Shown here: one piece after another, positions 1 through 62,300 of the stretch | Numbering within the stretch: position 1 is the stretch's first letter | Layout of the letters: the number at the start of each line of letters is the position of its first letter | Sequence record: NC_052652.1 | Source: Escherichia phage vB_EcoM_PHB05 | DNA: 64,000 bases | Reading direction: 5' to 3' (one strand) | Program-made: the position numbers and the translations under genes | Notes under the pieces: generated by a model | Told to the model about the DNA's origin: nothing | What the model saw: the letters and a program-made list of their open reading frames with translations, nothing else | Databases searched by the model: none

Positions 1-561
1 TACTCTGCGATCTTTTGGTTGGATTTCCATTACCTTCATTGCTACACCAATGAATAAAAACTGTGGTGATTCAAAAACAACATCATTGATCGCATCTTTC
101 ACAAGATACTTATCAACCATCTGGCGCAGTACGGAATAACCATAAGTTAGGTTTTTATCGTGATTGACAATTTTACCAATCTCAATAATTTCTTCTTCTG
201 TATAATCCATTTTTCCCCAATAGCCTTTACTTACAGACATATTGTAGAAATCCAGGAGGGAGGGGATATTGTGATATCCCCCATGAGCCTGTTTATAAAT
301 CATACCAAGAAGTAACCGACCTGCCATATCACTATATGCCTGATCTTTCTTATCAATACATGCTGCTATCATAGCTTTATGTAAATCACGAGTAGGCACA
401 CCGTCGTAACAACGTTTAACAGCTTCAAGTTCAATTTCAGACCAATTTAATTTACCAGCAGCAAACTCTGACCATTTACGAAGTTTTTCTGGATTAAATT
501 CTTCTTTCTTGCCGTTTGTTTTTGTTACATAACGGATAGATTTGCTTAGATACTGAGTCAC
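1..561 (-). CDS. ribonucleotide reductase large subunit-like protein, N-terminal part with ATP-cone; CDS continues beyond window start
   Basis: Minus-strand frame open to position 1; GTG start at 561-559 after GGAGAGGA; translation VTQYLSKSIRYVTKTNGKKEEFNPEKLRKW looks like an ATP-cone. Confidence 0.4.
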   Translation of the reverse strand, partial: MTQYLSKSIRYVTKTNGKKEEFNPEKLRKWSEFAAGKLNWSEIELEAVKRCYDGVPTRDLHKAMIAACIDKKDQAYSDMAGRLLLGMIYKQAHGGYHNIPSLLDFYNMSVSKGYWGKMDYTEEEIIEIGKIVNHDKNLTYGYSVLRQMVDKYLVKDAINDVVFESPQFLFIGVAMKVMEIQPKDRRV

Positions 562-572
562 TTCCTCTCCTA

Positions 573-821
573 TTAATTGTGCATGTTTAGAACATCTACA
601 TCATAACCGCCACGCATCTCATTATATAAGCCATTTGCGTATAGAAAACCTTCAAAATGATCTATACCTTCAAAACCTTTTGCCTTTGCTTTGCGGTCTG
701 CTTCTTGTCTTTTTGGGGATAATCTTTTAGATGTATCAAGGATAACTGTTACATTGCAACCTAATGTTTCATCAAAATAGACTTCAATTTCACAGCCTTC
801 ATATTTATTACTTTCTGTCAT
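573..821 (-). CDS. hypothetical protein
   Basis: ORF 573-833; in-frame ATG at 821 preceded by GAGAGG. Confidence 0.4.
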   Translation of the reverse strand: MTESNKYEGCEIEVYFDETLGCNVTVILDTSKRLSPKRQEADRKAKAKGFEGIDHFEGFLYANGLYNEMRGGYDVDVLNMHN

Positions 822-833
822 TTGGCCTCTCAA

Positions 834-1244
834 TTAGAATTCAGAATCATCATCTCGTGATGGATCATGTTCATTTCCGAAGTCTTCCATTTTGATATGA
901 GAGCTACCCCAACCTGTAAAATCTTCTTCTCCAAAGTGCAAAATATCTACACCTTGATAGATTCGCTTATATTTATAGTCTTGTCGAACTGGGAAAGTAT
1001 ACAATGTAGTATTTGCAAACACCACACGTCGATTGTTGTTACTACGAATATTAACACCACGTTCTACTGTATAATGTCCATCGGTAGACATACCAAGCAT
1101 TACTAATGCTGCTCGCAATGTGGTGTTATGATACTCGTGAGGAATTTTTCCTCCGTGTTTTTTAGCCATTTCTTTCCAGATCGGTGTAGCCTTAATGGTA
1201 GACATACTTACGGTCGCCCAAATGGTTGTATTAATTAGTGACAT
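834..1244 (-). CDS. hypothetical protein
   Basis: 136-aa ORF, ATG preceded by AAGGAGA. Confidence 0.45.
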   Translation of the reverse strand: MSLINTTIWATVSMSTIKATPIWKEMAKKHGGKIPHEYHNTTLRAALVMLGMSTDGHYTVERGVNIRSNNNRRVVFANTTLYTFPVRQDYKYKRIYQGVDILHFGEEDFTGWGSSHIKMEDFGNEHDPSRDDDSEF

Positions 1245-1310
1245 AAATTCTCCTTCTCTCTTTTAAGGAGAGCATAGCTCTCCTAACGTTAGCCTATACT
1301 ACACGAATCT

Positions 1311-1342
1311 CAATTAAAAGTCAACTATAATTTTAAGTTGAT
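1311..1342 (-). terminator. stem-loop GTCAACT/AGTTGAT followed by U-run on minus strand
   Basis: 7-bp inverted repeat 1320-1342 with TTTTAATTG downstream on minus strand. Confidence 0.35.
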
Positions 1343-2313
1343 CACCATTTTGTATGGTTCGTCAAAAGTTGACGATGTTGAATCCAACCACAGAAGTTTC
1401 CACTCCACAAACGATGTTTACGATCCATATGTGTAATACCTTCTTCCCAAGAGGAAGGGAACGGAGGAATATTAATACCACCTTTCTGTTGTTTTAATCC
1501 TGACAAATCCATTTCTTTCATTGGCGTTGCCTGGTGTTCAAACGGAGATGCATGTACCTTTTGTCCAGACAGCAAACGAGAATAGATATCCAATGCTTTA
1601 TCTTTAGTATCATTCAACTTACGATAACTTACCTGAGCGCAACAAGAAGCTGAAATAGCTTTTGCTTCATCTTCTGTCAACATTTTCTCGTTGGAGAAGG
1701 TTTCACCCAAGAAATAACGGATCATACCAGTTTCTGGATCTCGATCACGATTAACGTAAGGTGTATGCCATTCTCCTGGGAAAAGAAGATATGGTTCAGA
1801 AGATTCATACAGCTTTTTAATTTCTTTAGCAAGAGCCTCAATAGTAGGATCTGCATCAGCATCTACGCGCAACCACAAGAAGTTTTCTAGCTCTGTAGTG
1901 GTTACTACAGTCTTCATACGCTGAAATGGTTCTAGTAGGCGGTTTGCAACCTGTTTATGATAACCAGCAAGGGCAAACTCTTCTGCAAAACGTGCAGCAC
2001 TTAGTGCAGCCAAGTCCCACCATTCTTTTGCAGTATAACCTGCATCAATCAGGGCATCGTGATCTGTGCCTTTATCTTGCATACCTGGTTGGTTAGCACC
2101 AAAACGATAAGGACGTGCTGGAGATTGCCGTACCATTTCAATTAGAGTTTTAACAGGGATAGCTCGACTTGATGCAGCATTACGAGAAAACAAACGATGC
2201 GTCATCAATTCAGAGTGAATGATTCGAGGATATTCAAGTTCAAAGGTAACAATATCCTTACCTTCGGATGTTTGAGAGTGTGCAATAATTTTTGCTGAAA
2301 TAGAATTCGTCAT
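1342..2313 (-). CDS. thyX: flavin-dependent thymidylate synthase (ThyX)-like
   Basis: 323-aa ORF with AAGGAGA RBS; segment THRLFSRNAASSR matches the ThyX RHR-x7-S-x-R signature except first R. Confidence 0.5.
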   Translation of the reverse strand: MTNSISAKIIAHSQTSEGKDIVTFELEYPRIIHSELMTHRLFSRNAASSRAIPVKTLIEMVRQSPARPYRFGANQPGMQDKGTDHDALIDAGYTAKEWWDLAALSAARFAEEFALAGYHKQVANRLLEPFQRMKTVVTTTELENFLWLRVDADADPTIEALAKEIKKLYESSEPYLLFPGEWHTPYVNRDRDPETGMIRYFLGETFSNEKMLTEDEAKAISASCCAQVSYRKLNDTKDKALDIYSRLLSGQKVHASPFEHQATPMKEMDLSGLKQQKGGINIPPFPSSWEEGITHMDRKHRLWSGNFCGWIQHRQLLTNHTKW

Positions 2314-2322
2314 TATTTCTCC

Positions 2323-2913
2323 TTAAGGTAGTAAAATACTTTCAATTTCTTCCCACTGATTATCTAAACCAGTGATAATTACATTAGGAAGTTTCTTTAA
2401 CTCTTCCAAATATGGATCTTCGTAAATAGTGTTGAAATATATTTTCAACGTTTCATCTGGAAACAGAACAAGATTTTCAGCCCTATCGTCAATAGTTACA
2501 TCGCAAGGTAATAAGTATTTTTCTTTTGTTGCGAAAAAACCATTACCAGATGTTCTACTAAAATCCACTTTATCTAAAGATCGTGTTACGTGTCTATATT
2601 TAGAACTAAGGTGTCCACCCTTAGTGTGACTCGCTATAGATATATTAGCTCCATTTGCAATTATACGATGAACAACATCTGTACTATTAGGTACTACTCC
2701 CATAGTATCATATAGATGTTGGTTATCCCAAAAAGAGTAAGGATCTACACCAAATTGCTTTTTAAAATCAGGGAAATATTTCGTAATATCATAGTGCACA
2801 GTTTTATGTGTCTTATCAAATTTGATATTAGATCTACTTACCGCATTTAACCAATTTAACCATTCTATATCCGCTGGAGCTATTACTAAATCCCAATCAC
2901 ATACTAGACGCAT
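2323..2913 (-). CDS. HAD-like phosphatase / 5'(3')-deoxyribonucleotidase-like protein
   Basis: Internal ATG at 2913 preceded by AGGAGA; N-terminus MRLVCDWDLVIAPAD has a DxD motif; longer ORF 2323-3027 would overlap tdk. Confidence 0.35.
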   Translation of the reverse strand: MRLVCDWDLVIAPADIEWLNWLNAVSRSNIKFDKTHKTVHYDITKYFPDFKKQFGVDPYSFWDNQHLYDTMGVVPNSTDVVHRIIANGANISIASHTKGGHLSSKYRHVTRSLDKVDFSRTSGNGFFATKEKYLLPCDVTIDDRAENLVLFPDETLKIYFNTIYEDPYLEELKKLPNVIITGLDNQWEEIESILLP

Positions 2914-3460
2914 TATTTCTCCTGTTATAACATTTTCTACACATTGTTTCGTAAATGTCTTCTCCTCCAATAACAATCTGTTCTTTAGAGTCGATAAGTC
3001 TAGCATTGAAAATAGCTTTTCTTCCACATTTACAAATGCTTTTCAATTCTGTAATTGAATCTGCTATGGCTAATAACCGTTCAGAACCTTCAAACAATTC
3101 TGTAGCAAAATCTGTTTTAAGTCCATAGCAGAATACAGGAATATCGTAATTATCTACCACATCTCCAAGAATGTCAACCATATCTTTAGTTAGGAATTGT
3201 GATTCATCCACAAATACTGCATCTACTGGATTTTCTTTAAGTTGTGTATAAATTTCCAGCATATCTTCTTTTGTTTTAACTGGTTTTGCTTCCTCTTTAA
3301 TACCTATCCTGGAAGCAATAGCACCACCAGATCTGGTATCTAAAGCTGAAGTTAAAAGAAGAACTTTCATATTTCTTTCTTTATAGTTCCAAGCTGTTTG
3401 TAGAAGATGTGTGCTTTTACCACTGTTCATCGGACTATATCGGAAATAAAGTTTAGCCAT
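2897..3460 (-). CDS. tdk: thymidine kinase
   Basis: P-loop MNSGKST, VFVDESQF, C-terminal Cys-rich zinc motif (CKCGRKA...CRKC); GAGGAGA RBS. Confidence 0.85.
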   Translation of the reverse strand: MAKLYFRYSPMNSGKSTHLLQTAWNYKERNMKVLLLTSALDTRSGGAIASRIGIKEEAKPVKTKEDMLEIYTQLKENPVDAVFVDESQFLTKDMVDILGDVVDNYDIPVFCYGLKTDFATELFEGSERLLAIADSITELKSICKCGRKAIFNARLIDSKEQIVIGGEDIYETMCRKCYNRRNNASSM

Positions 3461-19276: not shown

Positions 19277-19349
19277 GGTTCCATAGCTCACTGACGAGAG
19301 CGCACACCTCATAAGTGTCGAGGGCAGGGATTGTAACCCTGGGGAACCA
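19277..19349 (+). tRNA. tRNA-like, anticodon CAU (Met/Ile2-type), atypical D and T loops
   Basis: Hand-folded cloverleaf; anticodon loop CTCATAA; T-loop ATTGTAA and D-loop without GG; CCA follows. Confidence 0.35.
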
Positions 19350-19383
19350 CCATTTAAAAGGAGGTGCTATGCATCTCCTATAT

Positions 19384-19469
19384 GCAAGTGTGGTGGAATT
19401 GGTGATACACATTGTGCTTAAAACGCAACGCTTAAATGATTGAGGGTTCGAATCCCTCCACTTGCACCA
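19384..19469 (+). tRNA. tRNA-Leu (anticodon UAA), type II, CCA encoded
   Basis: Acceptor GCAAGTG/CACTTGC, T-arm GAGGGTTCGAATCCCTC, anticodon loop CTTAAAA. Confidence 0.65.
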
Positions 19470-19471
19470 AC

Positions 19472-19577
19472 GCCTAGTAGGGTATTTGGTAATTCCGAGG
19501 CCATCAAAGCCTGAAAAATATGTTAGACCGCTTTGTCTAACTAAATACGAAATATGGTTCGATTCCATAACTAGGCT
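19472..19577 (+). tRNA. 106-nt tRNA-like element, anticodon loop CATCAAA (UCA), 6-bp D-stem with 4-nt loop, 39-nt extra arm
   Basis: Perfect acceptor GCCTAGT/ACTAGGC and canonical T-arm TATGGTTCGATTCCATA; internal 7-bp hairpin GTTAGAC/GTCTAAC. Confidence 0.35.
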
Positions 19578-19610
19578 TCAATTTAAATAATAATTTTTAG
19601 TAAAAATATC

Positions 19611-19639
19611 TTGACATTCACTTAGTTTTTTGTTATAGT
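19611..19639 (+). promoter_or_regulatory. promoter TTGACA-N17-TATAGT inside tRNA cluster
   Basis: Strong hexamers immediately upstream of the tRNA at 19651. Confidence 0.5.
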
Positions 19640-19650
19640 TGCTTTGAAAA

Positions 19651-19729
19651 CGGGGTGTATCTCACCTGACTTCTAATCAGGCGTTAACCGAGTAATTGGA
19701 GTATGCAGGTTCGAATCCTGTCACCCCGA
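19651..19729 (+). tRNA. tRNA-Arg-like (anticodon UCU) without a conventional D-arm
   Basis: Perfect acceptor CGGGGTG/CACCCCG, anticodon arm CCTGA-CTTCTAA-TCAGG, T-arm GCAGGTTCGAATCCTGT, CCA encoded; only 5 nt where D-arm should be. Confidence 0.4.
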
Positions 19730-19751
19730 CCAAAAAGTTTTTAAAAACTAC

Positions 19752-19781
19752 TTGACAAGCAAGATAGTTTTATGTTAGATT
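19752..19781 (+). promoter_or_regulatory. promoter candidate TTGACA-N18-TAGATT
   Basis: Consensus -35, moderate -10. Confidence 0.35.
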
Positions 19782-19796
19782 TAAAGTATGATAACG

Positions 19797-19883
19797 GGAA
19801 GGTAGGGCGCAGCGGTGCGCAACCAGGTTTGAACCCTGGCCCATTGTAGCGATACGGTGATGGTTCGACTCCATTATCTTCCT
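19797..19883 (+). tRNA. tRNA-Ser (anticodon UGA), type II
   Basis: Acceptor GGAAGGT/ATCTTCC, anticodon loop TTTGAAC, long variable arm, T-arm GATGGTTCGACTCCATT, CCA encoded. Confidence 0.65.
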
Positions 19884-19904
19884 CCAAATTCAACTAGGAG
19901 CTTT

Positions 19905-20057
19905 ATGAATTATAAAACTATTGGACAGGTTGTTACAGGAGTTAAGATTGTAGATAATAAGGTTGTTTATGAGTATTCTAATCTTCAACAATCTGAAGAT
20001 GGTAAGAATATTCGTATGGTAAAAGCAGAACAAAAAGACTCCGGTTGTTTTGAATAA
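19905..20057 (+). CDS. small hypothetical protein embedded in tRNA cluster
   Basis: 50-aa ORF MNYKTIGQVV... after AGGAG RBS. Confidence 0.35.
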   Translation: MNYKTIGQVVTGVKIVDNKVVYEYSNLQQSEDGKNIRMVKAEQKDSGCFE

Positions 20058-20065
20058 TTAAGAAC

Positions 20066-20148
20066 GGTAGATTGGTGAAATGGTAGCCACAACAGTTTGC
20101 TAAACTGTCGTCGGAAACGGCGTGTAGGTTCAAGTCCTACATCTACCG
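20066..20148 (+). tRNA. tRNA-Ser (anticodon GCU), type II
   Basis: Acceptor GGTAGAT/ATCTACC, anticodon loop TTGCTAA, T-arm GTAGGTTCAAGTCCTAC, CCA encoded. Confidence 0.65.
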
Positions 20149-20277
20149 CCAAGTTATCTTTAATGTAGCTTGTAATCTTACTTTAATAGAGTAAATCTTC
20201 GGCAAGTGGCGGTAACCACTTTACCGATATCCCATAGTCAAGTGCCGCAAACACTGGCTATTTTAAAGATAATTTAT

Positions 20278-20350
20278 ACATCGTTAGCTCAGTTGGTAGA
20301 GCAAGGGGCTTTTAACTCCAAGGTCGAAGGTTCGAATCCTTCACGATGTA
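20278..20350 (+). tRNA. tRNA-Lys (anticodon UUU)
   Basis: D-arm GCTCAGTTGGTAGAGC, anticodon loop CTTTTAA, T-arm GAAGGTTCGAATCCTTC, CCA encoded. Confidence 0.65.
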
Positions 20351-20358
20351 CCAAACAC

Positions 20359-20442
20359 GTAGGTATCGCATAGCGGCAATTGCTGGAGACTGTAAATCTC
20401 CTGCCCTTCGGGGCTTCGTTGGTTCGAGTCCAACTACCTGCA
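20359..20442 (+). tRNA. tRNA-Tyr (anticodon GUA), type II
   Basis: Anticodon arm GGAGA-CTGTAAA-TCTCC, T-arm GTTGGTTCGAGTCCAAC, CCA encoded. Confidence 0.65.
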
Positions 20443-20452
20443 CCAAATTAAA

Positions 20453-20534
20453 GATGGATTGGCCTAGTGGTTGGGCGACGGACTGTTAATCCGTGAACGA
20501 AAGTTCTAGCAAGGTTCAAATCCTTGATCCATCG
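20453..20534 (+). tRNA. tRNA-Asn (anticodon GUU) with unusually long variable arm
   Basis: Perfect acceptor GATGGAT/ATCCATC, anticodon arm ACGGA-CTGTTAA-TCCGT, 15-nt variable region with GAAC-GAAA-GTTC hairpin, T-arm CAAGGTTCAAATCCTTG. Confidence 0.5.
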
Positions 20535-20544
20535 CCAGAATTAT

Positions 20545-20621
20545 GGACTTGTAGAGTTAAGGTAAACCCCCAGTCGCCAAGAGGCTTCTGGAATTGCAGG
20601 TATCGAATCCTGCCGAGTCCA
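20545..20621 (+). tRNA. tRNA-like element with T-arm and acceptor pairing but no clear anticodon arm (possible pseudo-tRNA)
   Basis: Acceptor GGACTTG/CGAGTCC, T-arm GCAGGTATCGAATCCTGC with 8-nt loop; no CCA. Confidence 0.25.
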
Positions 20622-20627
20622 AGTATT

Positions 20628-20698
20628 GCTCCTATCGTATAACGGCTATTACGGTTGCCTTGTAAGCAACTTATCAGGGTTCGAGTCCTTGTGGGAGC
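20628..20698 (+). tRNA. tRNA-Thr (anticodon UGU)
   Basis: Anticodon arm GTTGC-CTTGTAA-GCAAC, T-arm CAGGGTTCGAGTCCTTG, CCA encoded. Confidence 0.65.
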
Positions 20699-20719
20699 AC
20701 CAATTTTAACTCTAAAGGA

Positions 20720-21049
20720 GTGTATGTGACAGAAAAAGAGTTAGAGAAATATTTTAATATCAATGTTTTCGATGGTTTTGATGATATTGAAGATGTTGAA
20801 AGATATTATGAAGTAGAGTTAGATAAGGATAACATTGTAATTCTTTCTGCCACTTATGATTGTGCATATTATGAAGGTGAATCTCACGTTTATTTTTATG
20901 ATATGAAAACATCTTTGTTTTATGAAGTACACGCATATCATTGTTCTTGTTATGGCTTAGAAGGTCAGTGGGAACCTGAAGAAATAGGTGATTTGGATTT
21001 TACTATTGCATATCTAAACAGACGTGGTGCATCTACTATTTTAAAATAA
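20720..21049 (+). CDS. hypothetical protein
   Basis: 109-aa ORF with GTG start after AAAGGAG. Confidence 0.45.
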   Translation: MYVTEKELEKYFNINVFDGFDDIEDVERYYEVELDKDNIVILSATYDCAYYEGESHVYFYDMKTSLFYEVHAYHCSCYGLEGQWEPEEIGDLDFTIAYLNRRGASTILK

Positions 21050-21063
21050 ATATCAAAAGCCTC

Positions 21064-21093
21064 TTGACAAAGGGGCTAATAATATGTTAGAGT
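21064..21093 (+). promoter_or_regulatory. promoter TTGACA-N18-TAGAGT
   Basis: Same hexamer pair as the prs promoter. Confidence 0.45.
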
Positions 21094-21104
21094 AATATTG
21101 TTAA

Positions 21105-21176
21105 GCGGGTATAGTGTTAATGGTAGCATATGAGGTTTCCACCCTCCAGGTGCAGGTTCAAGTCCTGTTACTCGCT
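21105..21176 (+). tRNA. tRNA-Gly (anticodon UCC)
   Basis: Anticodon loop TTTCCAC, T-arm GCAGGTTCAAGTCCTGT, CCA encoded. Confidence 0.6.
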
Positions 21177-21278
21177 CCAAGATTATTTAAATGGAATCGC
21201 TAGAGAAAATTTCTCTTTTCGCTCATGGTTTTCTCCTTCAAACTCTAGCGGTTCTTTTTAAGTGATTTTTAGTTTTAT

Positions 21279-21350
21279 TGGAGATTAGCCTAGTGGGAAG
21301 GCAACGGCCTTTGAAGTCGTGATGACTAGGTTCGATTCCTAGATCTCCAG
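21279..21350 (+). tRNA. tRNA-Gln (anticodon UUG)
   Basis: U1-A72 acceptor, anticodon arm ACGGC-CTTTGAA-GTCGT, T-arm CTAGGTTCGATTCCTAG, CCA encoded. Confidence 0.65.
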
Positions 21351-21360
21351 CCAGTATTTA

Positions 21361-21433
21361 CAGTGCGTAGCGCAGTTGGTAGCGTGGGAGCTTTGGATGC
21401 TTCGGGTCGCAGGTTCGAGTCCTGCCGCACTGA
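21361..21433 (+). tRNA. tRNA-Pro (anticodon UGG)
   Basis: C1-G72 acceptor, D-arm GCGCAGTTGGTAGCGT, anticodon loop TTTGGAT, T-arm GCAGGTTCGAGTCCTGC, CCA encoded. Confidence 0.65.
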
Positions 21434-21441
21434 CCAAATTT

Positions 21442-21513
21442 GCAGAGATAGCTGAGACGGATTAGTGCTACCCTGAAAAGGTAGAAAGGATGGATCGTTA
21501 CCATCTCTCTGCA
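21442..21513 (+). tRNA. tRNA-Phe (anticodon GAA)
   Basis: Anticodon arm CTACC-CTGAAAA-GGTAG, T-loop ATCGTTA (non-canonical), CCA encoded. Confidence 0.55.
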
Positions 21514-21593
21514 CCAAATAACACCATCCAAGGAGTAGACTTGGTTAACTGTCAATAGCACATTGAGGCTTCTTACAGTGGTGTGCTTATTAT

Positions 21594-21674
21594 GGCTAAG
21601 TGGTGGAATGGTATACACGATACGCTTAGAACGTATTGCCCCAAGGGATTGTGAGTTCGAGTCTCACCTTAGCT
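21594..21674 (+). tRNA. tRNA-Leu (anticodon UAG), type II
   Basis: Anticodon arm ATACG-CTTAGAA-CGTAT, T-arm GTGAGTTCGAGTCTCAC, CCA encoded. Confidence 0.6.
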
Positions 21675-21765
21675 ACCATATCTAAGAGATATCATAGGGT
21701 TTGCAACGGATATCTACCGTCCTGTTAAGGATACCACGCCAAGACGGGTTATAAAGGGTTAGCCA

Positions 21766-21838
21766 TTGATAGTGTGAAGCTGGCGTTTCGAGTGCTTTCA
21801 TAAGGCATTGCGAGAAGAGTTCGATTCTCTTACTATCA
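21766..21838 (+). tRNA. tRNA with anticodon CAU (Met or Ile2)
   Basis: Anticodon loop TTCATAA, T-arm AAGAGTTCGATTCTCTT, CCA encoded. Confidence 0.55.
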
Positions 21839-21856
21839 ACCAAATTACTACAGATT

Positions 21857-21932
21857 GCGCGGGATAGAGGAGTCTGGTCGTCCTCGCCAGTTTCATATGC
21901 TGGAGATCATCGGTTCGAATCCGATTCCCGCC
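21857..21932 (+). tRNA. tRNA with anticodon CAU (Met or Ile2)
   Basis: D-arm GAGG...CCTC, anticodon arm CCAGT-TTCATAT-GCTGG, T-arm ATCGGTTCGAATCCGAT, CCA encoded; position 1 mismatched. Confidence 0.55.
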
Positions 21933-21993
21933 TCCATTAAATACCTCCCTTCTGGTGTAATGATTAAATTGCATTGACACTTCAAGGAACTCA

Positions 21994-22073
21994 TAGCCGG
22001 GTAGATTTAAAAGAGTATGGTACTCAATATGGCTCCAAACCATAGATCAAGGGGTTCGATTCCTCACCTTGCT
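21994..22073 (+). tRNA. tRNA-Trp-like (anticodon CCA), atypical 5' half
   Basis: Anticodon arm TATGG-CTCCAAA-CCATA and T-arm GGGGTTCGATTCC are clear; acceptor and D region do not fold canonically by hand. Confidence 0.4.
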
Positions 22074-22081
22074 GCCAATTA

Positions 22082-22154
22082 TTGTGGTATCGTACAGATG
22101 GTTAGTACACTCGACCGATAATCGAGAAACAACGGTTCGACTCCGTTTACCACG
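22082..22154 (+). tRNA. tRNA-Ile (anticodon GAU)
   Basis: D-arm GTAC...GTAC, anticodon arm CTCGA-CCGATAA-TCGAG, T-arm AACGGTTCGACTCCGTT, CCA encoded. Confidence 0.6.
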
Positions 22155-22159
22155 ACCAA

Positions 22160-47383: not shown

Positions 47384-47391
47384 GAGTAAAA

Positions 47392-49965
47392 ATGTCAACT
47401 ACAATTACTAATTTACCAGAAACATCAAAAGTTAATGATTCTGATTACCTGGTTTTAGACCAATCTGATAAGACTGTTAAAAGCACAGTTTCCAAATTTC
47501 TTGCTGACACTGGGGTGGTTTTAGCCACCCAGTTGAAAGATACAGATGGAGCAGATTTAATACAATCCTCAAATGGTAATACTGTTCAGGAAGAGTTGAA
47601 TAACAATCTTCTTAATGATCGTGAACAGTGGCGTCGTAGTCTTGCAGAGGCAGGGTTAACACTTGTCGATGGTAGCTTTGAAGAGGGGGCTACAGTGGGC
47701 AGTGTAACTGATGCTATCTGGTACATGGCAGGTGCTCAGTGCTACACATGGGATGGTGTATTACCTAAAGACGTACCACCTAAATCAACCCCGACATCAA
47801 CTGGTGGTGTTGATTCTGGTGCTTGGGTTAGTGTTGGTGATATGTCATTAAAGGATAATCTTTCAAACTCCAGTAATGATAATTACGGTGATGCGCTGGT
47901 AGCAGTTAAGCAGCCGTATACTACCGCAATAAACAGAACGCAGCATGATAAAAATGCTGATGTACTTGATATTTCTGATTTTGGTGTAGATATAACTGGT
48001 GCTTCTGATGAGGGCAGTAAGTTACAACAGATATTTAATGAGTTGGCCGCAGCAGGCAAGTCTATTCGTATGCACGGGTCTGTAAAGACTACTATTAACT
48101 TAGATATACGGTGTAATGTGCTGTTTGAACCAGGGTTTAAATTAACTGGCGTGAAGCTAGAAACTGGACCGCAGACCTACATTAATATTTTTAATCGTAA
48201 TATAGATGTAAGCCATATTGTTCTAGATGGCATTGTTATGTGTTTCTACCCTGTAAGTTCCACGACTACTGTTAGAAACAAGAGATGTATTACGTTTACA
48301 TCAAATACGTTAGAAGACTCGTGTGTCCGGGTGGGCGGTGATAACCTCTCTGTGCGTAACGTGTTAATTTCTAACAATACTTTTAAGAACTCCGGGTCAC
48401 GTGTTCCAACAGCAATTCGCCTAATCAATGTCTCAAACGTTGAGGTAAGTTTTAACCTTATCCAGGAGTATGGTAGGCCTATTTATCAAACAGCAACTCG
48501 CTCTTTCTCTAACTACAATGTCAATATACACCACAATAATGTGGTTTGTGATTATGGTATAGTTCTTGAGGGTACTACTGCTTTTAGAGTTAGTAAGTTC
48601 ACAATTGCTGACAATGACATTGTTTGTGAGGTAAGGAACACAGCAGCAGGTGGACGAGATGCGATTGATGTCCGCTATGGCACTAGCGGACAAATACTCA
48701 ATAACAACATCAGAACTAATGGCAGAAACATTCGTTTATCCAATACTAAAGCTGATGTTCTATTTAATGATATGGTATCGAGTGCAACAAGTGCATTCTC
48801 TGTATTGATGGCTAGTTGCTATGAATCATCTTTTATTGGTAATAAAGTTTTCAATAATTCTACTGCTGAAATTATTGTTGTGCATGTGCAGACAGAGGCT
48901 GGAGGTCTTTACACGAGTAACAACGTAAGAATCGAATCCAACACTATCAAAGGTTTTGGTCGTCTGATTCGTGTGTTGGACACCAAGGATTATGTTGTTA
49001 CTAACAATAGATTAATAAGGACTTCAAACAATGGTAATGCAGTTATTGTTGCAGATGGTACTAGTGACAGAGGCCAGGTGCATAGCAATGTGGTAGTTGG
49101 TCCTGCTGGGGTTGTTGTATCTAGTATCAGCGGAACCAACAATGCAACAACCACTGCTGATACACTTCTGAGTGTTGCAGCTAACAGCAAGACCGTAACA
49201 GCCGTGGCGAATGGATTAGTTGATCCAGACTTGAATAATTCGAAGGCATTCATCTTCAATGTTCAGGTATCTGATGTTCAGATGTTACGAGCTTTATCAT
49301 CAACTGGTGCATCAAACGCCAAGACAGTATCTCAATTCATGGCTAGGGTATCCGGTGCAACCTTAGCTTGGAATGGTACTGCCTCAGTATCTGAAGTGGG
49401 TGGACCACCTGACATCTTCGTAAATGGTGTTCTTCAAGACTCATACGGTGCAGAAGATTATATATTCTACCGGTCAGGTATGCTTATTGACTCACAGAAT
49501 AAACTCAGTGTCCGTGACTTCCAGTGTACTGGCGATGGGGATACTACCGATGATGGTACAGGGGAAATGACGCTCCGTAATATGGCAGCAGCACAAGCAG
49601 CTGAGGGGGCTATTCACAGCGCATTCTTCCGTTCTCCTCTGGTTATGGATGGGGTTATTTACAATCCTGACACCACAGGAATTTATAAAAAATCTTACTT
49701 TGATACATCTCTAGATCCTAGAATGGCTATAGGACAAAAAGCTGATGGAACCTACGTTATTATTTGTGTTAATGGTAGATACGCAGATGGGGTAAGTCCA
49801 GGCTGCACTATGCAGCAGCTAGCATCTAAGTTTGTAGCCCTGGGTTGTATCAACGCAATGAACTTGGATGGCGGTGGTTCAGCTACTCTTTGGTATAACG
49901 GTACTATCCTTAATACCCCGTCGGATGGAAGTGAACGCCCTGTTTACCATTGTATGTATGTGTAA
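47392..49965 (+). CDS. tailspike protein with beta-helix-like central region
   Basis: 857 aa; N-terminal anchor-like region; Asn-rich repeats (NNTFKNSG, NNNIRTNG, NNRLIRTSNNGN); last 211 nt are part of the tandem duplication. Confidence 0.5.
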   Translation: MSTTITNLPETSKVNDSDYLVLDQSDKTVKSTVSKFLADTGVVLATQLKDTDGADLIQSSNGNTVQEELNNNLLNDREQWRRSLAEAGLTLVDGSFEEGATVGSVTDAIWYMAGAQCYTWDGVLPKDVPPKSTPTSTGGVDSGAWVSVGDMSLKDNLSNSSNDNYGDALVAVKQPYTTAINRTQHDKNADVLDISDFGVDITGASDEGSKLQQIFNELAAAGKSIRMHGSVKTTINLDIRCNVLFEPGFKLTGVKLETGPQTYINIFNRNIDVSHIVLDGIVMCFYPVSSTTTVRNKRCITFTSNTLEDSCVRVGGDNLSVRNVLISNNTFKNSGSRVPTAIRLINVSNVEVSFNLIQEYGRPIYQTATRSFSNYNVNIHHNNVVCDYGIVLEGTTAFRVSKFTIADNDIVCEVRNTAAGGRDAIDVRYGTSGQILNNNIRTNGRNIRLSNTKADVLFNDMVSSATSAFSVLMASCYESSFIGNKVFNNSTAEIIVVHVQTEAGGLYTSNNVRIESNTIKGFGRLIRVLDTKDYVVTNNRLIRTSNNGNAVIVADGTSDRGQVHSNVVVGPAGVVVSSISGTNNATTTADTLLSVAANSKTVTAVANGLVDPDLNNSKAFIFNVQVSDVQMLRALSSTGASNAKTVSQFMARVSGATLAWNGTASVSEVGGPPDIFVNGVLQDSYGAEDYIFYRSGMLIDSQNKLSVRDFQCTGDGDTTDDGTGEMTLRNMAAAQAAEGAIHSAFFRSPLVMDGVIYNPDTTGIYKKSYFDTSLDPRMAIGQKADGTYVIICVNGRYADGVSPGCTMQQLASKFVALGCINAMNLDGGGSATLWYNGTILNTPSDGSERPVYHCMYV

Positions 49966-50004
49966 TTATCTGGTGGGACTGAGCTAATGGCGTAGATTTC
50001 ATAG

Positions 50005-50027
50005 CAAAAAACCCCGCTTCGGCGGGG
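50005..50027. terminator. GC hairpin CCCCGC-TTCG-GCGGGG preceded by A-run (T-run on minus strand); second copy at 50595-50617
   Basis: Perfect 6-bp stem; U-tract orientation fits a minus-strand terminator although flanking genes are plus-strand. Confidence 0.4.
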
Positions 50028-50057
50028 TAATCATTGAGAATAACAATAGGAGTACAT

Positions 50058-50156
50058 ATGGAATCTCAACTCAGTCAACCTAAGCAGGTTATCAACGTCA
50101 AAGTGAACAAGCAGAGTATCGCTCATGATTTAAAAAGTAATGAGAACGCACTATGA
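50058..50156 (+). CDS. small ORF (32 aa) translationally coupled to holin-like gene
   Basis: AGGAG RBS; stop overlaps next start (ATGA); second copy at 50648-50746. Confidence 0.3.
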   Translation: MESQLSQPKQVINVKVNKQSIAHDLKSNENAL

Positions 50157-50362
50157 GAAAATTTTTAATAGGTATGTTCTGTACATATCCTGATAATAAA
50201 GTCAGTTCTACTAAAGTTTGGAATGCTATTGGTATGATTGTTATGTCCAGTATGTTTATTTATTTGGGAATTGATAAAGAAATTCCTGAATGGATGGGCT
50301 GGGCTTTTGTTTTTATGATCACACCATCCAGACTAATGAAGAATCGTTATTATTTGTGTTAA
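50153..50362 (+). CDS. holin-like small membrane protein, copy 1 with C-terminus altered by duplication junction
   Basis: Two hydrophobic segments; reads from codon 65 into the duplicated tailspike 3' fragment (ends RYYLC). Confidence 0.35.
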   Translation: MRKFLIGMFCTYPDNKVSSTKVWNAIGMIVMSSMFIYLGIDKEIPEWMGWAFVFMITPSRLMKNRYYLC

Positions 50363-50555
50363 TGGTAGATACGCAGATGGGGTAAGTCCAGGCTGCACTA
50401 TGCAGCAGCTAGCATCTAAGTTTGTAGCCCTGGGTTGTATCAACGCAATGAACTTGGATGGCGGTGGTTCAGCTACTCTTTGGTATAACGGTACTATCCT
50501 TAATACCCCGTCGGATGGAAGTGAACGCCCTGTTTACCATTGTATGTATGTGTAA
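50345..50555 (+). pseudogene. duplicated 3' fragment of tailspike gene 47392-49965 (no start codon)
   Basis: Identical to 49755-49965. Confidence 0.5.
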
Positions 50556-50934
50556 TTATCTGGTGGGACTGAGCTAATGGCGTAGATTTCATAGCAAAAA
50601 ACCCCGCTTCGGCGGGGTAATCATTGAGAATAACAATAGGAGTACATATGGAATCTCAACTCAGTCAACCTAAGCAGGTTATCAACGTCAAAGTGAACAA
50701 GCAGAGTATCGCTCATGATTTAAAAAGTAATGAGAACGCACTATGAGAAAATTTTTAATAGGTATGTTCTGTACATATCCTGATAATAAAGTCAGTTCTA
50801 CTAAAGTTTGGAATGCTATTGGTATGATTGTTATGTCCAGTATGTTTATTTATTTGGGAATTGATAAAGAAATTCCTGAATGGATGGGCTGGGCTTTTGT
50901 TTTTATGATCACACCATCCAGACTAATGAAGAAT
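50345..50934 (+). repeat. tandem direct repeat, copy 2 (590 bp)
   Basis: Identical to 49755-50344 at every spot checked. Confidence 0.85.
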
Positions 50935-50988
50935 TTAATAGATTTACGTTGGGGCAGATCACCTGCCCCTGATAAGGAGGATAACTAA
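50743..50988 (+). CDS. holin-like small membrane protein (intact copy, 81 aa)
   Basis: Two predicted TM segments (WNAIGMIVMSSMFIYLGI; WMGWAFVFMITP) and charged C-terminus. Confidence 0.4.
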   Translation: MRKFLIGMFCTYPDNKVSSTKVWNAIGMIVMSSMFIYLGIDKEIPEWMGWAFVFMITPSRLMKNLIDLRWGRSPAPDKEDN

Positions 50989-59480: not shown

Positions 59481-62300
59481 ATGTATCCTATTCCTTTATT
59501 TATGTCAACAACATCAGCTTCAGTAGTAACAGCTACATCTATAACCACTTCCTCTATTGGTATTGCAATAGTTGGTAGTAAAAAGCAACTGACATACACA
59601 GTTTCACCAGAAGATGGTGCGTTATTTGATATAGCTTTTTCATCTTCAGATAATACCAAAATGGTTATAGATAATAATGGTATGATGGAGTTTGTTGCTG
59701 AAGGCGGTTTTGATGCAATAATGACAGCTAAAAATAATTTAGGTGCTGTCTTAACTGATCAATCTGGTGGCTATGCTTCAGAATTAAGTGTGTACACTGA
59801 AAGTCTGTCTGCTATGGATGCAGGAACTACTCAACAATTGGTTGCTACAATCAGTCCAGAAGGTGCTAAAGACCTTCCAGACATGGTGATTACGTACACC
59901 ACAACAGATCCAGAAGTAGCTACTGTAAGTCCTACAGGGTTAATAACTGCTCTTAAAGATGGTAGTTGCCGTATAGGTTGTACTGCAACTTATCAAGGAA
60001 CAGTGGTGGCCTCTGATAGTTCTTATTTAGGTGTTAATGCTGTTCCTGTTATTTCTAATGTAACAGCCGTGGCAAACAGCTATGGAGACATTCGTGTTGC
60101 TTGGGATGTAGCTGATCCGCTAGATGGTGATACTTATACTGTAGAAGTATTAGATTTAAGTAATAACAGTGTCCAGTGGACTACAACAACCACGAATACT
60201 CATGCTTACTTTGATATCTCTGACTCTATTCCTCTTTATGGGTTTGCTCCAACATACCTTAAAATTAGCGTTAAGAGCACCAAAGCAGCACCCGTTATCT
60301 TTAATAACTCAATAGCTACAGATGATTCGTTCATTAAAGAAGTTATTGTCTTTGCTGGACAAGATAACGTAAATGCACACTTTACAGAACTATCTGGTGC
60401 AAATAAAGCAGTAATGAGTAGCACAACAACCCGTAATGCATATGCTACGCAACGTGGTTTAGCAAATGCTGAAGTTCTTCCGTTAAATGCAGCTTCTGGA
60501 TCATCAGCAGCAGATAAATATGCAGATGATAAAGCCGGAACAGGTACACCAGACAACTACTGGTATGATCTGGATAACGCAGCAGATGGGCCATGCTTAA
60601 CTAATTTTATCACTAAAGTCACACCTTATGCAAGTAAGGTTAAAGCAATTATTTGGGGACAAGGTGAAAATGATGCTGTATCAGCATCTTCGACTGTTGC
60701 AGGTAGATACAGTAACACTACACGTTACCATGATGCTACGATAGCTATCTTTGATAAGATGCGTACAATAGTTCCTGCTTCTCAAGCAAAAATTGTTTGG
60801 CAGATCCTAGGACGTTCTTATCTATATGGTGTAGAAGTTAATGGTGTGGATTGGCAGAAATACAGAAATGTACAAAGAACCATCTCTACAGCACGTGACG
60901 ATGTTATCATTGGTTCTTGGGTGGATGGTGCTGAACGCTACAGTGGTTATGTTTATGAAGAAGGTATTGATGGTCGTATCCATTATATTTCTTCTGTATA
61001 CCAAACAGCAGCTACAAAACTTGCTAAATCAGCAGCAGACGGTACAGACTTAACATCAACATCACCTGTTTGGGTTGATATGGCTGTTCCAACTGGAGCA
61101 ACAGCTATTTCCCAAGCTAATCAAGATACAATTTTAGCATGGGATGCTCAAGGTTATAGTAAACACTACTTCCGTAATATTAACGTCTTAACAGCATCTG
61201 TATTAACTGAACAAACGCTTAATACGAACAGTTATACGTTTACCTATGCAGATCAAGTAGAACAATATGGTTTTGCAGCAGGTACTACGATATTTGATGT
61301 TGCATATTATGACGAAGCAAATGATGTGTTATCTCCTTTAGTACGTTTTAATGTTAGCGTTACAGCAGGAAAAGTAGAAGATAAACCTGTCGTGATGGAC
61401 TATGATTTGACGCAAGAAACTCTTCCATCAGATGTTAAGGTTAATGGTGGGAACTCTTTTGCTCGTGCCTCTGGAGATATACTTGTAGCCACTAACACCT
61501 TGGTTGCTCCGTTGGAGTATGTTGGTACTACCCCTGTAGGTAGACGTGTAACAGCTAACACAGCTACACAAATTTTTGTCAACAACGCCTTAACAAGTGC
61601 AAGCCCGTGGGTAAAGACCAACTTAACTGTTGCAGCTTCATCTGATAAATCTCCGGCTGGAACTACTGCTAATGTATTCAAATTAACTCCGACTACAACC
61701 TCTGGTAGTCATATCTTAACTGCAACATATACTAACGCGTACAACATATCTGCCGGACGTAACTGGTCTGCCTCTGTTTTCTTGAAAGCGAACGGGATTA
61801 CTAAGGCCAAACTAAGATTAAAAGCAGGAACTGAAGTTAATGAGGGTACTTTTGATTTAGCAGCAGGTACATTCACAGGAAGTGAAGCTAATATTATATC
61901 TATGGGCAACGGTTGGTATCGTGCTATTCTGCATAAAACAGGGATAGCCAAACAGTCCTCCATAAGTTTTGAAATAATTGCCTTGGATGCAACTGGTGCG
62001 GAGATTTTCGCTGGAGATGGTACTAGTAACCTTGCAGTTTGGTTGCCACAGCTTGAAGGTGCTTCTACAGGAGAAACATCAAAAGCTGGATCGCCTTATG
62101 TCTGCACATATCCTGGAAATTTAGGAGGAGTATCCTTCACTATACCAAGGAACGGACATACTGGTGTGGATGTTTACTATTCCAACGGAGACGTTGTTCG
62201 TGATGTATTCTCTGGCACAGCATCTACTTGGACAATAAACTACTCCAGCTTGTACGATTGGGGATCAGTCTTTATTACAGGTTTGAAATATTACGACTAA
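59481..62300 (+). CDS. tail-associated protein with Ig-like (Big_2-type) domains and SASA/SGNH-type carbohydrate esterase domain
   Basis: N-terminal Ig-like repeats; motifs FAGQDN and IWGQGENDA match GQSN / WxQGESD signatures of sialate-O-acetylesterase-like esterases. Confidence 0.5.
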   Translation: MYPIPLFMSTTSASVVTATSITTSSIGIAIVGSKKQLTYTVSPEDGALFDIAFSSSDNTKMVIDNNGMMEFVAEGGFDAIMTAKNNLGAVLTDQSGGYASELSVYTESLSAMDAGTTQQLVATISPEGAKDLPDMVITYTTTDPEVATVSPTGLITALKDGSCRIGCTATYQGTVVASDSSYLGVNAVPVISNVTAVANSYGDIRVAWDVADPLDGDTYTVEVLDLSNNSVQWTTTTTNTHAYFDISDSIPLYGFAPTYLKISVKSTKAAPVIFNNSIATDDSFIKEVIVFAGQDNVNAHFTELSGANKAVMSSTTTRNAYATQRGLANAEVLPLNAASGSSAADKYADDKAGTGTPDNYWYDLDNAADGPCLTNFITKVTPYASKVKAIIWGQGENDAVSASSTVAGRYSNTTRYHDATIAIFDKMRTIVPASQAKIVWQILGRSYLYGVEVNGVDWQKYRNVQRTISTARDDVIIGSWVDGAERYSGYVYEEGIDGRIHYISSVYQTAATKLAKSAADGTDLTSTSPVWVDMAVPTGATAISQANQDTILAWDAQGYSKHYFRNINVLTASVLTEQTLNTNSYTFTYADQVEQYGFAAGTTIFDVAYYDEANDVLSPLVRFNVSVTAGKVEDKPVVMDYDLTQETLPSDVKVNGGNSFARASGDILVATNTLVAPLEYVGTTPVGRRVTANTATQIFVNNALTSASPWVKTNLTVAASSDKSPAGTTANVFKLTPTTTSGSHILTATYTNAYNISAGRNWSASVFLKANGITKAKLRLKAGTEVNEGTFDLAAGTFTGSEANIISMGNGWYRAILHKTGIAKQSSISFEIIALDATGAEIFAGDGTSNLAVWLPQLEGASTGETSKAGSPYVCTYPGNLGGVSFTIPRNGHTGVDVYYSNGDVVRDVFSGTASTWTINYSSLYDWGSVFITGLKYYD

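Follow-up and report, generated by a model that had tools for sequence, protein, structure and literature searches.

An exact 590-bp tandem repeat at the edge of a tailspike cassette in a phi92-like phage record: most likely an assembly or closure artefact

Duplicated sequence in the genome record of a large lytic phage can have either a biological or a technical origin, and examples of both are described. Phage T4 amplifies loci that are under selection, among them rII, genes 16-18 and dmd-tifA (Srikant et al. 2022, PMC9391042, and references therein), and its documented duplications form between homologies of 2-10 bp (Srikant et al. 2022, PMC9391042). Phage EfV12-phi1 evolved tail-fibre duplications of 1.8 kb, which were confirmed by a coverage spike, by PCR and by MinION reads (PMC6365445). 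On the technical side, artificial overlaps between the ends of contigs have been described by Philipson et al. 2018 (PMC5923482), for example overlaps of 127 bp produced by SPAdes. Here we analyse a perfect tandem duplication found in a 64,000-nucleotide stretch of the record of Escherichia phage vB_EcoM_PHB05 (NC_052652.1), referred to throughout as the window. Our conclusion is that an artefact is most likely and is to be favoured over a genuine recent duplication; in either case the repeat is a one-off event without sign of function.

The window belongs to a phi92-like myovirus of the genus Justusliebigvirus, and its nearest relative is phage JLBYU50. The genes that flank the repeat are structural: a Calx-beta/TIM-barrel fibre protein, the tailspike, a small membrane protein of 81 aa, a Baseplate_J-like wedge protein, and further baseplate and fibre genes. 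In phi92 the tailspike slot holds the endosialidase gp143, which is the distal part of fibre I; the wedge consists of gp145 and gp146, and the virion proteins that were modelled do not include gp144. Judging from gene order, the 81-aa gene would occupy the position of gp144 and the 495-aa wedge gene that of gp145.

The earlier note on this DNA had described a perfect 590-bp tandem duplication, and direct comparison of the two copies confirms it, with identity at 590/590 positions. The copies are arranged head-to-tail with a single novel join between positions 50344 and 50345, where …CTAATGAAGAAT is followed directly by CGTTATTATTTG…. The match extends beyond the unit by 0 bases on the left and 0 bases on the right, so that the boundaries are uniquely defined and devoid of microhomology; a short homology of 2-10 bp was looked for at the two breakpoints and was not found (0 bp on either side). 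In a repeat scan this pair was the sole long direct repeat of the window, and a chance origin is excluded, since even one repeated 20-mer is expected by simple arithmetic only about 0.002 times in 64 kb. Tandem Repeats Finder, when run on the window, did not report the 590-bp repeat, but this is no evidence against it, because the longest period considered by the program is 500. The coordinates of the repeat and of the features in and around it are collected in Table 1.

Table 1. Features of the duplicated region, in window coordinates.
Feature	Position	Strand	Remarks
Intact tailspike gene, 857 aa	47392..49965	+	Tail_spike_N adaptor and C-terminal NAGPA phosphodiester-glycosidase domain
Copy 1 of the 590-bp unit	49755..50344	+	590/590 identical to copy 2
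GC hairpin, copy 1	50011..50028		ACCCCGC-TTCG-GCGGGGT; 7-bp GC stem, TTCG loop
32-aa ORF, copy 1	50058..50156	+	AGGAG Shine-Dalgarno; stop overlaps next start (ATGA)
69-aa fusion ORF	50153..50362	+	Membrane-protein residues 1-64, then RYYLC from out-of-frame tailspike sequence
Copy 2 of the 590-bp unit	50345..50934	+	590/590 identical to copy 1
Orphan tailspike 3' fragment, 211 nt	50345..50555	+	Dead fragment
GC hairpin, copy 2	50601..50618		Second copy of the stem-loop
32-aa ORF, copy 2	50648..50746	+	Sole complete ORF duplicated
Intact 81-aa membrane protein	50743..50988	+	PHROG 1322; intact in copy 2 alone
Baseplate wedge subunit (Baseplate_J-like), 495 aa	50988..52475	+	Unaffected by the duplication

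The content previously assigned to the unit proved accurate: it comprises the last 211 nt of the tailspike gene, the GC hairpin, the 32-aa ORF, and exactly codons 1-64 of the 81-aa ORF. The consequences drawn from this content were likewise right, namely a fusion ORF with a new C-terminus (it ends in ...MKN-RYYLC followed by the stop codon), a tailspike 3' fragment, and a membrane-protein gene that is whole only in copy 2. An exact-protein look-up of the 69-aa fusion product in public assemblies found no gene. The orphan tailspike fragment includes an in-frame ORF of 51 aa starting at 50400, which is without a convincing ribosome-binding site. Downstream, the ribosome-binding site of the wedge gene, AAGGAGGA, lies within the last codons of the 81-aa gene, and the stop codon of the latter overlaps the wedge start codon (TAATG), so that the two genes are translationally coupled; this arrangement is kept only at copy 2, where it is intact. 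The duplication alters no essential gene, and the tailspike protein itself is unchanged. As for the smaller elements of the unit, the hairpin is preceded by an A6 run and is not followed by a T run, and it therefore scores as an intrinsic terminator only on the minus strand; the 211 nt around it fold no better than shuffled sequence (z = -0.7), and among the relatives it is shared only with JLBYU50. The 32-aa ORF is annotated in JLBYU50 as well, and has no match among the PHROG and Pfam families.

The 81-aa protein had been called a two-TM holin-like protein in the earlier note. Its sole family match is PHROG 1322 ('membrane protein'); it has no match in Pfam, and no match to a curated holin family in either PHROG or Pfam. 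Its sequence contains one strong hydrophobic segment (approximately residues 22-40), a second one that is short and weak (approximately residues 47-57), and a charged tail. The gene does not lie beside an endolysin or a spanin, as it would in a lysis cassette, but between the tailspike and the baseplate wedge gene; the paper on phage BME3, a member of the same genus, also places the gene for this protein far from the endolysins. The label of putative class II holin, which appears in one record and one paper, derives from predicted topology alone, and another record labels the protein as structural. The evidence for a holin is thin, and the holin label goes further than the predicted topology warrants.

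The position of the repeat relative to the tailspike deserves closer description. The NAGPA domain of the tailspike spans residues 680-857 (Pfam E = 1.3e-25). Among 50,697 phage records the full-length protein is shared only with JLBYU50 (88% at the amino-acid level), and on this basis we regard it as a rare receptor-binding module. Exact-protein look-ups of the tailspike and of the upstream 719-aa protein in public assemblies found nothing, and a literature search for a NAGPA-type tailspike found no paper. Across 21 related loci the tailspike slot contains different tailspikes or is empty. The slot, at positions 47384-50152 of the window, has the 719-aa Calx-beta/TIM-barrel fibre gene on one side and the 81-aa gene on the other and is a hotspot for cassettes, filled in the relatives by unrelated tailspikes of 436-804 aa or by nothing; in the related loci conservation restarts about 30 nt upstream of the 81-aa start codon. 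Positions 1-367 of the unit, with the hairpin and the 32-aa ORF, belong to the cassette and are shared only with JLBYU50, while positions 368/398-590 are conserved backbone. The 590-bp unit therefore straddles the right edge of the swappable cassette.

Comparison with related genomes, which the earlier note had named as a check on the duplication, was carried out at several levels, and it turned up no second copy in 21 loci and no join in 131 records. Once the repeat is collapsed to a single copy, the window and JLBYU50 are colinear from end to end of a 9.4-kb alignment with 93.8% identity. A probe of 240 bp centred on the novel join matched 131 phage records, none of which crosses the join: the matches all end there, except in JLBYU50, where both halves of the probe map to one single-copy stretch of 593 bp. 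Neither a second copy of the unit nor any repeated 40-mer was found in the related loci (0/21), and the gene tables list a single 81-aa gene in each of the 20/20 loci from assemblies. Public assemblies contain the exact 81-aa protein in 922 blocks and the exact wedge protein in 133, and at every locus shown there is a single copy. A 42-mer across the junction, the wild-type left junction and an internal 30-mer had no match in IMG/VR, in the JGI metagenomes or in the GTDB genomes, and Megablast against E. coli genomes and plasmids also gave no match.

Some other features of the window may be noted. Relative to the ECGD1 record the window is clean except for a small number of differences in homopolymers; those checked lie in the tRNA block or in non-coding DNA. 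Differences of a single base in the length of G runs occur at 20410, 20677, 21300 and 26101; the first three belong to the tRNA block, where two or more of them fall within predicted tRNA genes, and the last is between the terminase and portal genes. These sites probably reflect homopolymer errors in one of the two records. The tRNA block itself (19277-22158) comprises 16 plus-strand tRNA genes, three of them for tRNA-Met, and is located just after a switch in GC skew and coding strand near 16 kb. A segment of about 950 bp (61337-62287) is without an ECGD1 counterpart, with flanks that are 98% identical; it is a variable segment adjoining the last tail-component gene. Signs of careless assembly, in the form of homopolymer frameshifts relative to ECGD1, were looked for and none of note was seen, a result that neither helps nor hurts an artefactual origin of the repeat.

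We consider it fairly probable, if by no means assured, that the second copy is an untrimmed overlap of contig ends, left inside the record after circular closure or re-orientation. Genomes of this type assemble as circles, so that a linear contig can run on past the point at which it began and its two ends then repeat each other; were these ends joined, or the sequence re-oriented, without trimming, the end copies would become adjacent and would look like a perfect tandem duplication at an arbitrary internal position. In the present case the raw contig would have begun at CGTTATTATTTG... and ended at ...AATGAAGAAT, and would have been re-oriented later. We infer this assembly history from the sequence, which is itself no proof of an artefact. 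The artefact is favoured by the 590/590 identity combined with the 0 bp of homology at the boundaries (for random contig ends, zero homology on both sides is expected by arithmetic about 56% of the time), by the uniqueness of the repeat, which is absent from the relatives and whose collapse to one copy restores colinearity with JLBYU50, by breakpoints that lie out of frame inside two genes, by the known tendency of phage assembly to generate artificial overlaps at contig ends, and by the repeats around the ends of the BME3 record described below. Its weak point is size: the k-mer-sized overlaps of the commonest short-read assemblers measure 55-141 bp, and one of 590 bp is longer and atypical, so that it would require an overlap-based or long-read assembler, or manual closure. 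This atypical length, and the otherwise high base quality of the window, speak for the main competitor, a genuine and very recent tandem duplication that arose in the phage stock by illegitimate recombination or by template switching during replication, and that would be carried along since one intact copy of each gene remains, but would be unstable and lost by homologous recombination between the copies. We regard a real duplication of this type as a serious contender, which we nevertheless hold to be the less probable of the two. Lytic myoviruses do acquire tandem duplications and retain them (T4, EfV12-phi1), and a unit that straddles the edge of a tailspike cassette exchanged among relatives lies in a recombination-active neighbourhood. 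It is also true that each gene is still present in an intact copy, that the 81-aa gene remains translationally coupled to the wedge gene, and that such a genome would be viable; however, whether it is real or artefactual, a tandem duplication never destroys the last intact copy of a gene that it cuts, and viability is therefore uninformative in this choice. Against a real event, the breakpoints lack the microhomology of 2-10 bp reported for T4, and no trace of the duplication is present in any relative (21 loci; 131 phage records). Moreover, short-read assembly usually collapses a perfect 590-bp repeat rather than resolving it. There is no obvious selectable gain, because the breakpoints fall inside two genes, out of frame, and only the 32-aa ORF is copied whole; with no in-frame product and no other change in whole-gene dosage, nothing obvious would hold the duplication in the population.

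The remaining explanations carry far less weight. It is improbable that a real duplication has been kept by selection, acting on the 69-aa protein and the doubled 32-aa ORF through a change in lysis timing or in a membrane-linked step, or that the repeat is a frozen intermediate of cassette exchange at the right-hand edge; the 69-aa protein keeps both hydrophobic segments and loses the charged tail. Even less credence can be given to the idea that the copies are physical direct terminal repeats made adjacent when the linear genome was circularised or wrapped. Short terminal repeats do exist in the group, as PhageTerm reported direct terminal repeats of 342 bp for BME3. In the record of that phage, however, no gene is annotated within the initial 1,482 bp, a region that takes in its terminal repeat. 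In the window the boundaries of the unit interrupt the tailspike gene and the conserved gene for the membrane protein, and a packaging terminus would hardly be expected at such a site in phages whose sequences elsewhere agree with one another at 97-99% identity. Neither end of the BME3 record matches the window (the comparison used bases 1-3000 and 144372-147371 of PP239276), and a physical terminus at the 590-bp repeat was rejected on the ground that the packaging-terminus sequence of BME3 is without a match in the window. In the same record the first 788 bases are repeated perfectly at 146169-146956 and the first 342 again at 147030-147371, with the annotated 'DTR-L' at 146957-147298, which looks like untidy handling of the terminus in a published record; the perfect 788-bp and 342-bp repeats around its ends indicate that end handling in this genus does leave repeated sequence. 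Least probable of all is a locus, programmed or phase-variable, whose changes in copy number would regulate a holin or the tailspike. Its sole point in favour is the position adjoining a receptor-binding gene; it is opposed by the lack of a second copy (21 loci) or of the junction (131 phage records) in the relatives, by a neighbourhood made up of structural genes, in which neither a recombinase nor a reverse transcriptase nor short flanking repeats occur, by an unchanged tailspike protein, and by the unsupported status of the holin assignment. Programmed variation, whether as phase variation, shufflon or DGR, is effectively refuted by the comparative data from these loci and records. Hence, of the three alternatives offered earlier for the perfect identity of the copies, a very recent event and an artefact remain, with the artefact ranked first, whereas phase variation is not supported, for want of recurrence in the relatives examined and of a recombinase.

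An artefact would mean that the record exceeds its true length by 590 bp and that two of its ORFs are spurious and would be passed on to annotations and protein databases. A real repeat would represent one more transient duplication of large lytic phages, located at the edge of a frequently swapped tailspike cassette. Neither outcome changes the understanding of phi92-like phages, and the importance of the finding is mainly one of data quality.

These considerations can be placed in the light of the known systems. Like the duplications of T4, the repeat described here is head-to-tail in a large lytic myovirus and has the perfect identity of a recent event, and its loss by homologous recombination would be expected; the T4 cases, however, involve homologies of 2-10 bp and selection for gene dosage, whereas the repeat in the window lacks any such homology and duplicates no functional gene in full. 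The duplications of EfV12-phi1 and those of T4 gene 37 (Tetart et al. 1996, via PMC6365445) touch a receptor-binding gene of a myovirus, as does the one in the window; in the account given there the fibre was lengthened in frame and the host range changed, while here the tailspike is unchanged and the copied 3' end is dead. Artificial contig-end overlaps differ from our case in that the usual k-mer overlap is several times shorter than 590 bp, and in that they sit at the ends of a sequence, so that copies in an internal position require a later step of closure or re-orientation. They resemble it in that the copies are identical, their position is arbitrary with respect to genes, their boundaries are without homology, and they are absent from relatives.
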